Positions 14,756-61,522 of a stretch of 64,000 nucleotides of DNA are shown in pieces. This DNA is from Alphaproteobacteria bacterium (GTDB taxonomy: Bacteria > Pseudomonadota > Alphaproteobacteria > MPNO01 > UBA830). The translations under genes and the position numbers were made by a program. The stretch covers positions 2,848,001 to 2,912,000 of the forward strand of contig OZ219791.1 of the NCBI GenBank assembly GCA_964291215.2, given 5' to 3'. The notes under the pieces were generated by a model. That model did no database searches. It had not been told where the DNA came from and worked only from the letters and a program-made list of their open reading frames with translations. The stretch's first letter is position 1. Each line of letters begins with the position of its first letter.

Positions 14756-14851
14756 CTTATATGATCAGGTTTTATCCCCATGATGATGAAATCATCCACA
14801 GCGGTTGGGGTGGGAAAAAATGTGGATAACCTCGACTATGGGAGAGCTATG

Positions 14852-15047
14852 GTTGCAGAGAGATTCCGCTCCCCTGTGTGAGAACGTACAGGGGAGCGGG
14901 GATCAAACGATCTCCGCGGAGATTGCCGTTCCGTCCTTGGCTTTATAGAGCCGTTCCCGAGCGTGGCAACCTCCTTTGGCGTCCCTTGCGTCCTGAATGG
15001 ATGCTTGAGTTTGAACCGTATCATCATAAGGCGAGGAACAAGGGACG
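14852..15047 (+). ncRNA. Putative bridge RNA (IS110 copy 1)
   Basis: 5' hairpin (GCAGAGAGAT..CCGCTCCCCTG/CAGGGGAGCGG..); loop closed by GGAGATTGCC/GGCAACCTCC contains TCCCGAG (complement of right flank CTCGGGA); second loop has ATGGATGCT (= element right end) and ATAAG (complement of left end CTTAT). Confidence 0.8.
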
Positions 15048-15800
15048 ATGGTAGCAGGGGTCAGCCAGTCTGGACATCTGGGGCGTCGTTTTACGAACGA
15101 CGCCACGGGCACGTGGCTTCGCAGCCTCGAGGTAACCCGTGTGGTGGGCGACAGGCCGCTATCACCGCAAGGTTCACCAGTGTCTTCATGACCGGGGCTT
15201 CGAGGTTGTCCTGCCCGTTGAGGGCTTCGCCGAGGCTTTGGGCCAACCGCGTTGACGCCAAGATCGGCACGGTGCGATCTCGAGCCTGTGGCCCCTCAGG
15301 AAGCCTTCCTCAACTGCCTGGGGGATCTCCTGGTGCCGCGCTTGTCGACGTGCGGACCAAGTTGAGGCAAGTGGCAGATGAGGTGGATGGCGAGACCGTC
15401 ACAAGGGCTTCGGCGGCCGATCTCGATGATTGCCGGTGCGGCGATCAAAGCGGTGATCGCCGGTGATCCCGAGCAGAGGTACCCTGACCTCGATCCCCGG
15501 TCCAGTGACCGCCGCAGCCCTTCCTTGTTGGATGCCCGAACTCGGCAGCGTCGGCAGCCTTGATCGGGGTGGCGCCGATGGCCAACGACAGTGGCCAGCA
15601 CCACGGTGCTCGGCATATCCGTGGCGGGCGCCGGAGGCCACGTGATCTCCTGTTCATGGCCGCGACCTCGGCAGCACGCTTCAACGCGGATCTAGTGCGC
15701 CACAAGGCCTACAAAGTCGCCATTGTCGCCGTGATGCGCAAGCTCTGGCGAACACCTTGCTGCGACAGCAGCGTTGCTGGTCGCCCGAAGCACCGGTGAG
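15048..15800 (+). pseudogene. IS110 recombinase/transposase pseudogene (copy 1)
   Basis: NRVDAKI, GPVTAAAL..WMPELG, IGVAPMANDSGQHHGARHIRGGR (Transposase_20 serine motif), KVAIVAVMRKL; many deletions and frameshifts. Confidence 0.9.
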
Positions 15801-16075
15801 TGAGCGAAGGAGACACGGCCCTCACCTCTGCCGAGAAACAGCGCCGTTATCGGGAACGCCGCAAATCTCTGCCCACGGAAAGCCCCGTCGTTCCCGTGCG
15901 CAACGCTGGCGCGATGCGGTGGCTCGGTGCAGTGCAGGAGCACTGTCGGGACTGTCTCGACAGTCTCCCCGACTCCCTGCGCGACACGGCTTGCGGAGAA
16001 CGTCTGCAGATCATCGTCGAGGCTGACATCGCGGATCTTGAGGACATCGAACCGCCGCGCGGCTACGGACGGAAC
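15800..16075 (+). pseudogene. Small passenger protein within IS110 (AEKQRRYRERRK...LDSLPDSL...IEPPRGYGR)
   Basis: Present in all three copies directly after the transposase; function unknown; frameshifted. Confidence 0.65.
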
Positions 16076-16309
16076 ACCTGGAACCCCATTGACCACGGTA
16101 ACGTTACCATGCACGGGGACGCTGGACGGCAAGGTGGCCGCGCTCACGTGACCGTGAGCAATGGACGGCAACCCGCCGCCGGGACCACAAGCTGCATCTC
16201 GTCTCACTCGCAGGACATCGACAAGGCGGAACCTCGGACCGCCTGTGGACAACCACAGAAAAAATCACCGCGGACACCCGCAAAAACCTTGCCTGGAAAC
16301 ATGGATGCT

Positions 16310-25578: not shown

Positions 25579-28134
25579 TTATCCGAAATCGAAGTCCCCG
25601 GCATTCACCTCGGTCACGCCTTCAAGAACGATCAGGCTGCCGCCCACATCCGTCAGATCAATGACTGTTTCGCTTCCGTCTCTCGTGGTGATTCTGCTCT
25701 CGAGATCGCTGAAGTCATCTATGCTGGCGTAGCCGGAAATCTGGATGGTGTCTTCCCCGTGTCTGCCGAAATCCTGGATCGTGTGAACAGCGCCACTGGT
25801 GCCGCCAATTCTGTTGAGGAAGACGAATGTGTCGTCGCCGTGCTCGCCGTACATGGTGTCGTCACCGGCGCCGCCACGCAAGGTGTCATCGCCCCAGCCA
25901 CCGTTCAGGGTGTCATCGCCGTCGCCGCCATGCAAGGTGTTATCGCCCCAGGAATTTTCCAAGGTGTCGTCGCCGTCGCCACCGTACATGGTGTCGTCGC
26001 CGTGGCCGCCGTACATGGCGTCGTCACCGGCGCCGCCATGCAAGGTGTCATCGCCCCAGCCACCGTGCAGGGTGTCGTCGCCGTCATCGCCATACAGCGT
26101 ATCGCCGCCCCTGTCGCTCCAACCGGCGAACAGCATGTCGTTGCCATGACCGCCATGTAGTGTGTCGTAGCCCTTGCCACCGAACAGGGCGTCGTCGCCA
26201 GCGCTGCCGTGTAAGGTGTCGTCGCCGTCGTGGCCGTACAGGATATCGTCGCCGTGGCTGCCATCCAGATGGTCGTCGCCGGTGCCGCCATGCAGGATTT
26301 CGCCGGCACTGGCCTTTATTTGGAAATTGCCGGTTGTTTCATCGAGCCCCAGGGAGATGCCCGACACATTCAACAACCTGATCATGACATCATCGTCGAC
26401 GGAGTCGTAGCGAATGACAGTATCGGCACCGTCTCGACTGATATCAAGCTTGATACCGGATCCTTGGATAAGAATCGTGTCGTCCGCCGTGAAATCGGCG
26501 ATGGTGTCGCTTCCATCTGCCGCAGGGTACCGGACGAGGTAGCCATCAGGGCCAAGGTACGACGGTCCTCCCGTCCAGAACACGAAGGTGTCAGCGCCCG
26601 AGCCGCCGTACAGGACATCGTCGCCGCCATCGCCCTCCAGAGTATCGTCGCCCGAACCGCCGTACATGGTATCGTCGTCGTCGCCGCCCGTCAGCGTGTC
26701 GTCGCCGTCATGGCCGTACAGGATATCGTCGCCGTCGTGGCCGTGCAGGATATCGTCGCCCGTGCCGCCGTTCAGGATTTCGCCGACACCGGCCTTTATT
26801 TGCAAATTGCCGGTTGTTTGATTGCCCTCCAAGGAGAGGCCCGACACATTCAACAACCTGATCGTGGCACCACCGTCGACGGAGTCGTAGCGGATGACGG
26901 TATCGGCACCGTCTCGACTGATGTCAAGCGTGTGTTTGATATGGATTCCTTGGATAAGAATCGTGTCGTCCGCCGTGAAATCGGCAATGGTGTCTCTTCC
27001 ATCTGCCGGATTGTACCGGCGTCCCCCTCCCGTCCAGAACACGAAGGTGTCAGCGCCCGAGCCGCCGTACAGGACATCGTCGCCGCGACCGCCCTTCAGA
27101 GTATCGTCGCCCGAACCGCCGTACATGGTGTCGTCGCCTTCGTCGCCGTGGAGTATGTCGTCGCCCTTGCCGCCCCCCAGCGTATCGTCGCCAGCCCCGC
27201 CGCGCAGGGTGTCGGCACCCCTGGCGCCGCGCAGCGTGTCGTCGCCCGCGCCGCCGTCCAGCGTGTCGTTGCCCTTGCCGCCCCCCAGCGTATCGTCGCC
27301 AGCCCCGCCGGTCAGCGTGTCGGCGCCCAGGCCGCCATAGAGGAGGTCGTCGCCGGCCCCGCCGGTCAGCGTGTCGGCGCCCCCGTAGCCACGCAGGGTG
27401 TCGGCGCCATCACCACCGGTGAGCGTGTCCGCGTCCTTGCTACCCTTCAGCACCTCGCCGCCAGAAGGCCCGCCGCTCGAGGCGTCGCCGGACGTGCCCT
27501 CCGGCGGCGCGCCCTGTGCAAGAGCGTCCTCGCCGCCGCCCTCCGGCGGGGCTGCCTCGACGGGAAGGAACCGGAAGTCGTCCGCGCCAAGGGAGGCCGC
27601 CGTCACGCCCTCCAGCTTGATCGTGTCGCCGTCGCCGTAGCGGATGACGGTATAGAAGCCCTTCTGCTCGATCACCAGATCCCCGAAACCGCCGGACACC
27701 CCGGCAATCTCGATGATGTCGCCAGCCTCGAAATCGCCGATGTAGTCGGCCCCGTCGCCGACCGCGAACGCAAAGACGTCATGGCCACTGCCGCCATAGA
27801 GCGAGTCCGTGCCCCGGCCGCCGGTCAGCCTGTCGGCGCCCCGGCCGCCTTCCAGACGGTCGTTGCCCGCACCGCCATCGACCGTGTCGTCACCGTCGCC
27901 GCCATAGAGCGTGTCGTTGCCCGTGCCGCCGTCCAGCGTGTCATCGTCCGAGCTGCCGGGGTTCATGAGGAGAAAGTCCGCGTCGGCTCCCGCGCTTGCG
28001 GTTCCGCCCGTCAGCGTGTCGTCGCCGTCGCCGCCCGTCAGGATGTCGTCGCCGAGGCCGCCCTTCAGGATGTCATTGCCGAGGCCACCCGTCAGGGTGT
28101 CGTCGCCAGCACCGCCGGTCCGCTCGATAGCCAT
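25579..28134 (-). CDS. RTX-repeat (hemolysin-type Ca2+-binding) protein, probable T1SS substrate
   Basis: 851 aa; dozens of GGxGxDxLx nonapeptides; internally duplicated DTIADF..DGADTVIRYD modules; AGGAGG RBS. Confidence 0.93.
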   Translation of the reverse strand: MAIERTGGAGDDTLTGGLGNDILKGGLGDDILTGGDGDDTLTGGTASAGADADFLLMNPGSSDDDTLDGGTGNDTLYGGDGDDTVDGGAGNDRLEGGRGADRLTGGRGTDSLYGGSGHDVFAFAVGDGADYIGDFEAGDIIEIAGVSGGFGDLVIEQKGFYTVIRYGDGDTIKLEGVTAASLGADDFRFLPVEAAPPEGGGEDALAQGAPPEGTSGDASSGGPSGGEVLKGSKDADTLTGGDGADTLRGYGGADTLTGGAGDDLLYGGLGADTLTGGAGDDTLGGGKGNDTLDGGAGDDTLRGARGADTLRGGAGDDTLGGGKGDDILHGDEGDDTMYGGSGDDTLKGGRGDDVLYGGSGADTFVFWTGGGRRYNPADGRDTIADFTADDTILIQGIHIKHTLDISRDGADTVIRYDSVDGGATIRLLNVSGLSLEGNQTTGNLQIKAGVGEILNGGTGDDILHGHDGDDILYGHDGDDTLTGGDDDDTMYGGSGDDTLEGDGGDDVLYGGSGADTFVFWTGGPSYLGPDGYLVRYPAADGSDTIADFTADDTILIQGSGIKLDISRDGADTVIRYDSVDDDVMIRLLNVSGISLGLDETTGNFQIKASAGEILHGGTGDDHLDGSHGDDILYGHDGDDTLHGSAGDDALFGGKGYDTLHGGHGNDMLFAGWSDRGGDTLYGDDGDDTLHGGWGDDTLHGGAGDDAMYGGHGDDTMYGGDGDDTLENSWGDNTLHGGDGDDTLNGGWGDDTLRGGAGDDTMYGEHGDDTFVFLNRIGGTSGAVHTIQDFGRHGEDTIQISGYASIDDFSDLESRITTRDGSETVIDLTDVGGSLIVLEGVTEVNAGDFDFG

Positions 28135-32464: not shown

Positions 32465-33757
32465 ATATGATCAGGTTTTGTCCCCTTGATGATGAAATCA
32501 TCCACAGCAGTTGGGGGCGGGAAAATGTGGACAACCCCGACTGTGGGAGAGCGTCCGATCTATGGTTGCAGAGAGATTCCGCTCCCCTGAGCGAACACGC
32601 ACAGGGGAGCAAACGATCTCCGCGGAGGTTGCCGTTTCGACCTTGACAGAGCCGCGTCCGAGTTTGGCAACCTCCCTTGACGTCCCTCGCTGGATGCTTG
32701 GGTTTGAACCCGTATCATCACAAGGCGAGGAGCGATGGTCAAGGTAGTAGCAGGGGTCAGCCAGTCTGGACATCTGGCGCATTGTTTTGCGAACGACGCC
32801 ACGGGCAGGTGGCTTCGCGGCCTCGGGGTGAGCCGGGTGGTGGGCGACAGGCCGCTATCACCGCAAGGTTCACCAGTGTCTTCATGACCGGGGCTTCGAG
32901 GTTATCCTCGTCAACCCGTTGCGGGCGCTTCGCCGAGGCGATGGGCCAACCGCGTCGACGCCAGGATCGGCACGGTGAGCCTGTGGCTCCGCCTTCCTCA
33001 AGAACCTGGAGGATCTCCTGGTGCCGCGCTTGTCGACGCCAAGCAGGTGGCAGATGAGGTGGATGGCGAGACCGTCATAAGGGCCCCGGCGGCCGATCTC
33101 GATGATCGCCGGTGATCCCGAGCAGAGCTACGCCATCCTGACCTCGATCCGGTGACCGCCGCGGCCCTTCTGGATGCCCGAATTCGGCAGTGTCGGCAGC
33201 CTTGATCGGGGTGGCGCCAACGACCACGGTGCTCGGCACATCCGTGGCGGGCGCCGAAGGCCACGCGATCTCCTGGCCGCAACCAGCACGCTTCAACGCG
33301 GACCTGGCAAGCGTGTTCGAGCGCCTCAAGACTGCCGGCAAGCAAGGTCGCGATTGTCGCCGTGATGCGCAAGCTCTGGCGAACACCTTGCTGCGACAGC
33401 AGCGTTGCCTGAAGCACTGGTGAGTGAGCGAAGGAGACACGGCCCTGCCGAGAGCGCGACCGGGACTGTCTCGACAGTCTCCCTCTACGACACGGCTTGG
33501 GGAGAACATCTGCAGATCATCGTCGAGGCCGACATCGAGGAGACCGAACCGCCTTGGGACACCTGGAACCCGGACGGTCACGTGCCCGGGGACGGCAAGG
33601 TAGCCGCGTTCACGTGACCAATGGACGGCAACCCGCCGCCGGGACCACAAGCTTCATGTCGCCTCGCTCGCAGAGCAAATCCCACACCGCTTGTGGACAA
33701 CCACAGAAAACATCACCACAGACACCCGCAAAAACCTTGCCAAGAAACATGGATGCT
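32465..33757 (+). mobile_element. IS110 element copy 2 (most eroded; left core damaged)
   Basis: Colinear with copy 1; right end AAACATGGATG-CT at 33756-57; both flanks are ISAs1 transposase sequence. Confidence 0.88.
32565..32734 (+). ncRNA. Putative bridge RNA (IS110 copy 2)
   Basis: Same stems as copy 1; loop GTCCGAG (32656-62) predicts CTCGGAC against observed flank CTCGGTC; TGGATGCT and ACAAG donor guides. Confidence 0.7.
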
Positions 33758-59997: not shown

Positions 59998-61522
59998 AGC
60001 ATCCATGTTTCCTGGCAAGGTTTTTGCGGGTGTCCGCGGTGATGTTTTCCGTGGTTGTCCACATGCGGTCCGGGGTACCGCTTCGCCGATGTCCTGCGAG
60101 CGAGGCGACATGCAGCTTGTAGTTCCGGCGGCGGGTTGCCGTCCATTGCTCAAGGTCACGTGAGCGCGGCCACCTTGCCGCCCAGCGTCCCCGGGCATGA
60201 TAACGTTACCGTTGTCAATGGAGTTCCGGGTGTCCCGTCCGTAGCCGCGCGGCGGTTCGATGTCCTCGAGAGCCTCGATGTCGGCCTCGACGATGATCTG
60301 CAGACGTTCTCCGCAAGCCGTGTCGCGCGGGGAGACTGCCGAGACAGTGCTCCTGCAACGCACCGAGCCACCGCATCGCGCCAGCGTTGCGTACGGAAAC
60401 GACGGGGCTTTCCGTGGGCGGGGATTTGCGGCGTTCCCGATAACGGCGCTGCTTCTCGGCAGGGGCGAGAGCCGCGTTTCCTTCGCTCGCTCACCGGTGC
60501 TTCGGGCGACCAGCAGCGTTGCTGTCGCAGCAAGGCGTTCGCCAGAGCTTGCGCATCACGGCGACAATCGCGACCTTGCTTGCCGGCGGTCTCGAGGCGT
60601 TCGAACACCAGGTCCGCGTTGAAGCGTGCCGCCGAGGTCGCGGCCATGAACAGGAGATCGCGTGGCCTTCTGCGCCTGCCTCGGATGTGCCGGGCACCGT
60701 GGTCGTTGGCCATCGGCGCCACCCCGATCAAGGCTGCCGAGTTCGGGCATCCAGAAGGGCGGCGGCGGTCACCGGATCGAGGTCAGGATGCCGTACCTCT
60801 GCTCGGGATCACCGCTTTGATCGCCGCACCGGCGATCATCGAGATCGGCCAGGCCCTTGTGACGGTCTCGCCATCCACCACATCTGCCACCTGCCTGGCG
60901 TCGACAAGCGCGGCACCAGGAGATCCTCCACGCTCTTGAGGAAGGCACCCTGAGGAGCTACAGGCTCGAGATCGCACCGTGCCGATCCTGGCCAGCGTCG
61001 ACGCGGTTGGCCAGATGGCCCAACGCTTCGGCGAAGCCCGCAGCGGGCAGGACAACCTCGAAGCCCCGGTCATGAAGACACTGGTAAACCCTGCGGTGAT
61101 AGCGGCCTGTCGCCCACCACACGGGTCACCTCGAGGCTGCGAAGCCACGTGCCCGCCAGCTCGCGGCGTCGTTCGCAAAACGACGCGCTGCCGCACGGAC
61201 TGGCCTTGCTGACCCCTGCTACTACCTTGACCATTGTCCCTTGCTCCTCGCCTTGTGATGATACGGTTCAAACTCGGGCATCCATTCAGGACGCCAGGGG
61301 AGGTTGGCCGACCACGCTCGGGAACGGCTCTGCAAAGCCAGGGGCGAAACGGCAACCTCCGCGGAGATCGTCTGATCCCCGCTCCCCCGTGCGTGTTCGC
61401 ACAGGGGAGCGGAATCTCTCTGCAACCGGGTACTCTCCCACAGTCGAGGTTGTCCACATTTTCCCGCCCCCGACCGCTGTGGATGACTTCATGATCACGG
61501 GGATACAACCCGGTCATACAAG
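59998..61522 (-). mobile_element. IS110 element copy 3
   Basis: CT cores at 61522-21 and 59999-98 (minus strand); rejoined flanks GGGCCACTATGTACGGC-CT-CATGAAC match the empty site at 16658-16683. Confidence 0.92.
61235..61426 (-). ncRNA. Putative bridge RNA (IS110 copy 3)
   Basis: Same fold as copy 1; ATGGATGC and ACAAG guides match this copy's donor junction ATGGATG-CT-TGT. Confidence 0.78.

Follow-up and report, generated by a model that had tools for sequence, protein, structure and literature searches.

Three related insertion elements lie within the 64,000-nt stretch of alphaproteobacterial DNA analysed here (hereafter the window), and they raise the question of whether an RNA encoded by the elements themselves led them to their sites, and whether this can still be read from copies whose genes are broken. 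Our answer, drawn from sequence comparison, is that the elements belong to a decayed multi-copy IS110 family whose left-end guides match their own ends and insertion sites, and which very probably spread by bridge recombination of the IS621 type while it was intact.

The preliminary description had placed three homologous elements at 14756-16309 (+), 32465-33757 (+) and 59998-61522 (-), and both the coordinates and the letters hold. It was also right that terminal inverted repeats and target site duplications are lacking: among the 25 longest pairs listed for copy 1 and for the intact relative L172 none links the two ends, and the CT core alone is repeated. Empty sites contain one CT and filled sites one CT per end, which means that there is no target duplication beyond the core. 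The left end is long (292 nt) and non-coding. Regarding the proposed structured region of about 195 nt before the transposase, the structure is real (segment 14850-15050 has a fold z of -3.78, and 0 of 200 shuffles folded equally well), but the transposase reading frame is broken in all three copies. The sequence ATGGATGCT is present at 14997-15005 and again at 16301-16309, the right end of copy 1, as first described. The features of the three copies are:

14756-16309, forward strand: copy 1, IS110 element with the CT core at both ends; its flanks derive from two different original target sites.
14760-14765, forward strand: -10 hexamer of copy 1; the partner -35 at 16289-16294 stands at 17-nt spacing in the circular form only.
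14792-14800, forward strand: DnaA-box-like 9-mer, left end box 1 of copy 1, one mismatch to the consensus that we assume.
14821-14829, reverse strand: DnaA-box-like 9-mer, left end box 2 of copy 1, perfect match to the assumed consensus.
14866-14899, forward strand: 5′ hairpin of the predicted bridge RNA of copy 1.
14918-14974, forward strand: target-binding loop of copy 1, with left guide 14929-14937, right guide 14954-14961 and handshake bases 14962-14963.
14980-15047, forward strand: donor-binding loop of copy 1, with left donor guide 14997-15005 and right donor guide 15020-15030.
15048-15799, forward strand: broken IS110 transposase gene of copy 1, with 25 deletions, 20 of them frame-shifting, and three of five catalytic codons lost.
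15800-16078, forward strand: remnant of a 96-aa passenger gene of copy 1, of no known family.
16244-16252, reverse strand: DnaA-box-like 9-mer, right end of copy 1, one mismatch to the assumed consensus.
16289-16309, forward strand: -35 hexamer of copy 1 (16289-16294), then left donor arm and CT core (16301-16309).
32465-33757, forward strand: copy 2, inside another multi-copy insertion sequence (host A); the left junction lost 8 nt after insertion.
32635-32643, 32655-32662, 32691-32698 (shortened) and 32714-32724, forward strand: guides of copy 2.
59998-61522, reverse strand: copy 3, at a site that another genomic copy's guide pair matches perfectly over 11 nt.
61341-61349, 61317-61324, 61278-61285 and 61252-61262, reverse strand: guides of copy 3.

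In the linear element the -35/-10 pair of copy 1 does not form a promoter. The outer stem of the copy 1 target loop has been shortened by one deletion per arm, and in copy 2 deletions removed the CT core and part of the left donor guide. Elsewhere in the window, 25579-28134 (-) encodes an 851-aa protein rich in RTX calcium-binding repeats, and the remainder consists chiefly of metabolic and transport genes.

Using the three window copies in BLAST searches, we recovered 82 merged loci in this genome, of which 61 reach 1,100 nt or more, and the target guides could be read in 64. Compared with L172, the transposase gene carries 17-31 deletions in each of the 61 near-full copies, window copies included, and none of these copies retains all five catalytic residues; they are therefore fossils, or pseudogenes. 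Pfam fragments are above cut-off in copies of this genome, PF02371 also in window copy 1. No intact cognate transposase was found in the assembly (99% complete). The intact IS110 genes of this genome encode two 430-aa proteins of a different type (C1:480856-481836 and C1:883760-884740, 96% identical to each other), to which the lineage protein gives no match.

Relatives were found in other genomes. A DNA search of 60 related genomes resulted in a single weak match, in genome G001. A genome of the same genus carries an intact 315-aa relative (L022), which as query retrieved 79 related loci from Paracoccaceae, Amylibacter, Rhodobacter, Silicimonas, Albidovulum and alphaproteobacterial MAGs. A metagenome scan with the transposase of a relative gave no match; a scan with an alignment of the passenger gene recovered L172, an intact 1,840-nt member of the same sub-lineage that is about 85% identical to the copies in this genome. 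L033 is a further intact relative. Both DEDD (PF01548) and Tnp (PF02371) are above cut-off in L022 and L172. The latter matches IS621 with an E value of 2.4e-29, and its residues D9, E51, D93, D96 and S232 align on D11, E60, D102, D105 and S241 of IS621, five residues shown to be essential there (partial text of PMC11208158). The left end of L172 was above threshold for no Rfam family. Its right end contains a perfect 22-nt inverted repeat with 38-nt spacing, 3′ of the passenger gene (L172:2126-2207).

The two-loop RNA structure was examined in an alignment of 20 chosen left ends, in which the target loop was taken from RNAalifold and the inner donor-loop helices were assigned by hand. Here 94.5% of the cells are paired, compared with 35-59% when the structure is slid along the alignment, and 12 of the 32 stem pairs have changed on both sides. 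The left donor guide is invariant inside the lineage, so its covariation is visible only against distant relatives: of eight distant plasmid IS110s that have other donors, seven carry a left donor guide identical to their own end at 7/7 positions and one agrees at 6/7 (compared by eye). The right donor guide had been described as covarying with the end; this is true of copy 1 (ATAAG) and copy 3 (ACAAG) but fails in copy 2, which combines ACAAG with a TAT-type end. In this genome it pairs with the end in 34 of 40 copies (14 by G-T wobble) and mismatches in six, and it shifts together with the end between lineages. When the ends are joined, -35-like and -10-like hexamers come to stand at 17-nt spacing, a sequence pattern present in 85/85 elements; a junction promoter is likewise found in IS621 (partial text of PMC13626964).

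Target guides were compared with the insertion flanks. For the right target guide, the matches described for window copies 1, 2 and 3 (7/7, 6/7 and 5/7) were confirmed, and the collection of genomic copies and homologues placed the covariation on firmer ground than three copies could, as it holds in this genome and in related genomes. In 58 copies the right guide matches the five bases right of the CT core with a mean of 4.50/5 against 3.47 when shuffled (0/20,000), with 37 copies perfect, 16 with one mismatch and five worse; the four core-proximal bases of the left guide reach a mean of 3.46/4 in 41 copies. The copies are related by descent, which inflates significance in the shuffles, and does so even when each distinct pair is counted once. 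Counted in this way, the scores were 3.95 against 2.96 for the right guide (19 pairs, 0/20,000) and 3.0/4 against 2.24 for the left (18 pairs, 6/20,000) in this genome, and 3.92 against 1.96 (right) and 2.83 against 1.54 (left) in the relatives (24 distinct pairs and 0/20,000 each). Two interrupted copies of this genome were scored using the flank of the adjacent piece, and of the 79 related loci 62 were parsed and 17 were not. The two outermost left positions rarely match (6/41 and 7/41) and the sixth right position does so about half the time (25/58), so the target appears to be read over approximately 4-5 + 2 + 5 nt.

In total we count 17 guide pairs for this genome and 25 for the relatives, the donor arm being ATGGATG-CT throughout; guides vary between related genomes, each tracking its own flank. 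The guides of L172 match its own site with one G-T wobble (by eye). Moreover, 40 of 41 junctions have C at target position 7, and G is the first handshake base of the donor loop in 61 of 63 cases; both fit the handshake rule taken from PMC11208158 (partial text). The reading of this region as a bridge RNA is thus upheld by the two loops, the compensatory stems, the guide-flank covariation, the junction promoter, the handshake and an intact relative with the catalytic residues.

What counts against it is that, of the 37 copies in which both junctions are present, only 16 fit their own guide without a mismatch, and 11/37 have 2-4 mismatches; some guide among the 17 pairs of the genome is matched perfectly by 25/37. 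That the left-target guides of the window copies match only partly had been noticed from the start, and empty host copies revealed the cause for each. The left flank of copy 1 is the left half of one target, that of the guide pair carried by copy e4, and its right flank is the right half of another target; copy 1 is therefore a recombinant. Copy 2 has lost 8 nt across its left junction, and the full junction is kept in three copies in the same host. Copy 3 lies at a site that the guides of copy e61 match perfectly over 11 nt; its own guides do not. In general, recombination between copies, guides acting in trans or half-match insertion (partial text of 10.64898/2026.08.31.748434) can each produce a mismatch with a copy's own guide.

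A mechanism consistent with these observations would run as follows. The element would form a circle, and the promoter at the circle junction would make the bridge RNA. Its donor loop would bind ATGGATG-CT plus the left end, its target loop would recognise some 4-5 nt to the left and 5 nt to the right of a CT core, where the transposase would insert the circle. Point changes in the target guides would retarget sub-lineages to other insertion sequences, presumably abundant and harmless landing sites. The copies would later have been eroded by recurrent 5-7-nt deletions, and some flanks may have been swapped by recombination between copies. Finally, DnaA might bind boxes around the junction, gating transcription of the bridge RNA or aiding a copy-out step.

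This last step concerns the 9-mers at the ends, which we call DnaA-box-like on the basis of a consensus that we assume and that may not be the host's own box. Boxes with at most one mismatch are present in 85/85 elements with both ends, at 2.55 per 258 nt of end sequence versus 0.028 in shuffled sequence and 0.023 genome-wide. Their places are fixed and flank the junction, at about -75/-64, +36/+40 and +65 relative to the core; the window sub-lineage has the first left box in inverted orientation, and in L172 this box is a perfect match. The family holds 24 of the 29 perfect boxes of the genome and 162 of the 547 near-perfect ones. Alternatively, the 9-mers might be bound by the transposase or by some other factor, or they might be filler that was inherited. 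In keeping with this, boxes in the relatives are mostly one letter off the assumed consensus, and only 4 of 36 distant IS110 loci have boxes (within 400 nt upstream and 300 nt downstream, several loci having short flanks), the 32 box-free ones looking like normal elements. However, the strong enrichment, the fixed places on both sides of the junction, the inversion between sub-lineages and the family's share of the perfect boxes argue against this alternative, which we consider possible but somewhat doubtful. At the one 430-aa IS110 locus checked there was no DnaA-like box. Among the 36 distant loci, L274 (G581:C277, 34% identity) is the sole case in which boxes flank the transposase gene on both sides. 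Regarding the host origin of replication, no clear box cluster was found near hemE or dnaA; at C1:2314307, about 90 kb from dnaA and close to a tRNA-like sequence, two DnaA-like boxes lie 12 nt from each other and are at most a candidate for the origin. We found no literature linking DnaA to IS110 ends or bridge RNA.

Who moved the copies last is a separate question. The late spread may have been non-autonomous, dead copies with their own guides having been moved in trans by an intact transposase that was since lost. Several observations agree with this. Copies at unrelated sites are near-identical and have most of their deletions in common (e49 and e75, with 35 common deletions, diverge by 0.28% in substitutions), one clade that is spread over at least four site types carries five fixed coding deletions in every one of its 18 copies, and MITEPpu9 is an example of hitchhiking on an IS110 (partial text of PMC12288879). 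However, the assembly has no intact cognate transposase, its two intact IS110 genes being of the other 430-aa type; deletions recur at the same spots, and even copies of different clades share 21.5 on average; and gene conversion within a clade would yield equal likeness. Nor were the RNA loops spared, having lost 15% of their bases compared with 22% in the gene, values on which we also rejected selection still guarding the loops in dead copies. We regard late movement in trans as unlikely.

The insertion sites themselves bear on a further alternative. Right flanks fall within sequence present at least three times in 61 of 67 cases, such sequence making up 27% of the genome, and these repeat-borne insertions lie mostly in about ten host sites. 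One DruA-ISAs1 element, L125 (C2:460688-462697), is the target at three positions; it encodes an ISAs1-type transposase with a fused DruA (PF14236) domain and is present in about 25-40 copies in this genome. Other hosts look, by their motifs, like ISAs1 and IS1634 remnants; these gave no Pfam match. The relatives L172, L044 and L092 also lie inside apparent transposase genes of other elements, presumably integrase-core, IS630-like and IS30-like ones, again judged by motifs.

Such a distribution would also arise if a few insertions had multiplied as passengers of transposing hosts, most of the guide-flank agreement here then being inheritance. On the host trees, filled copies of host A cluster beyond chance (8 versus 14.3 changes, 0/2000), as do those of host C (70/2000), so that a measure of co-amplification is conceivable. 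In contrast, filled copies do not form a single clade on any of the four trees (8, 6, 9 and 4 changes), and in hosts B and D they are no more clustered than chance. The covariation, moreover, is still seen when distinct pairs are scored, and also among the 25 guide pairs of other genomes. Empty copies of hosts A and C mostly have a changed target: the right target arm is intact in 20/21 filled versus 9/23 empty copies of host A (p 9e-5) and in 13/14 versus 3/14 of host C (p 3e-4), with a search window that undercounts both filled and empty copies. No significant difference in the right arm was found in hosts B, D, E, F and G. A perfect 11-nt target is kept by few of the empty copies of A (7/23), C (1/14) and B (1/22); in host D 16 of 30 empty copies are still perfect targets, which counts against our explanation. 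The pattern fits repeated guided insertion with changed hosts escaping, and inheritance followed by erosion of empty sites could account for part of it; selection against hits in real genes likewise favours landing sites in insertion sequences. We consider multiplication with the hosts quite improbable as the main explanation, and repeated guided insertion remains our preferred one.

The decay has a pattern of its own. Deletion lengths have their main maximum at 5-7 nt and a secondary one at 12-14, and the 5-7-nt peak is also seen in 6/6 other repeat families (seven families including the IS110 element). Both main clades are polymorphic for the same 49 deletions, and 49 diagnostic substitutions stay almost wholly clade-bound, which means that the same deletions recur, after insertion. 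Conversion between the two main clades was rejected as a source of the shared deletions because the diagnostic substitutions do not travel along. Slippage at short repeats was rejected too, as microhomology does not exceed the random level: lengths of 0, 1, 2, 3 and 4 nt occur in 37, 19, 10, 7 and 1 of 74 events, against 54, 29, 11, 5 and 2% at random. In near-identical copies private deletions about equal or outnumber substitutions, and deletion starts are modestly enriched at ATC (57/429 versus 4.8%). No Ku for Ku-type end joining was found in this genome. The deletions look like the product of a site-prone process acting on insertion sequence DNA. The repeat content of the assembly (27%) and the unusual deletion pattern might suggest that the copies owe their breaks and mosaic structure to an artefact of assembly or polishing. 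This is extremely unlikely, since contigs of three other public runs (one study) have 5-7-nt indels at the listed places and the same shortened left end, the clade-diagnostic substitutions are clean along each copy and the guide-flank links survive.

The 96-aa gene 3′ of the transposase is, within the lineage, confined to the window sub-lineage. It is found at window 15800-16078, L172:1822-2109 and P0002, and its product, a conserved protein with a basic N-terminal helix, has 75 relatives, belongs to no Pfam family and falls into Atlas clusters that are all unnamed. We scanned 42 ORFs upstream of this gene in 80 metagenome loci; 8 are IS110, 21 IS21 IstB, 4 integrase-core, 3 Mutator-type, 3 HTH-led and 1 a reverse transcriptase, and 2 are unassigned. 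With neighbours of so many element types, in unrelated genomes, the passenger is a general hitchhiker of mobile elements and not specific to IS110. Cargo carried by IS110 elements has been reported (partial text of 10.64898/2026.08.14.744561).

Based on sequence features, we place the lineage in the IS110 group as IS621-like, with the catalytic residues found in intact relatives only. Elements of the IS1111 group have sub-terminal inverted repeats and a guide RNA in the right end; here no sub-terminal inverted repeats occur among the 25 longest pairs listed, and the guides are in the left end instead. With the bridge recombinases IS621 of E. coli and ISCro4/IS622 (partial texts of PMC11208160, PMC11208158, PMC13626964 and 10.1101/2025.05.14.653916) the lineage has in common the DEDD and Tnp domains with five catalytic residues, here in intact relatives, a left-end RNA, here predicted, with 5′ hairpin, target and donor loops and handshake bases, and a CT core, a junction promoter, here seen as a sequence pattern, and no terminal repeats. 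The right donor arm is nearly that of IS621, but the left one is ATGGATG versus ACAGTAT. Compared with IS621 the ends are longer and have DnaA-box-like sites, the window sub-lineage has a passenger gene, the target spans about 4-5 + 2 + 5 nt, the 17 guide pairs of this genome are aimed at other IS elements and all of its copies are dead. The alphaproteobacterial ISMno7 and plasmid IS110s of Rhizobium, Phaeobacter and Pseudosulfitobacter are 40-44% identical in protein and share the donor-loop layout, with a left donor guide that equals their own end as in the lineage; they differ in having other donor arms and shorter ends without DnaA-like boxes.

Insertion into repeated sequences is shared with IS4321/IS5075, which reportedly insert at Tn21 ends, and with ISPpu9. 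The latter targets REP sequences and is associated with MITEPpu9 (partial text of PMC12288879). In our case, in contrast to these elements, one family with many guide variants is aimed at several unrelated IS families. The outside end of IS50/Tn5 likewise contains a DnaA site, but that element is a DDE cut-and-paste transposon with one DnaA site overlapping the transposase site (partial text of PMC3347997), whereas the lineage is an RNA-guided element with 2-4 putative DnaA sites flanking the junction promoter.

The lineage had been proposed as a further programmable recombinase lineage with its own donor. It does have its own donor, ATGGATG-CT, and many target guides, but elements with their own donor are common among IS110 relatives, so it is not in itself a new kind of system, and its probable mechanism is the known bridge recombination. 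Where it appears to stand apart is in having DnaA-like boxes and a passenger, and in sitting nested within other IS elements. We found no related paper on the donor motif with IS110, and the 72 orthologues of 10.1101/2025.05.14.653916 may include the lineage; in the available part of the PMC11208160 supplements the motif occurs once, within a barcode.

As a tool, one more donor sequence extends the available set only modestly, and the intact L172 and L033 could be used unaltered for tests. The 17 guide pairs, many one letter apart, beside empty and filled targets are a natural record of bridge-RNA retargeting and mismatch tolerance. We tentatively suggest, while thinking it less likely than not, that this bridge lineage was wired to the replication initiator through the junction boxes and preyed on IS families by stepwise changes of its guides, hosts escaping by point changes in the target. 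Recent preprints, as far as their partial texts go, report that IS110 elements copy out and are not cut out; given these reports, the conserved DnaA-like boxes at the ends may point to a testable host factor.
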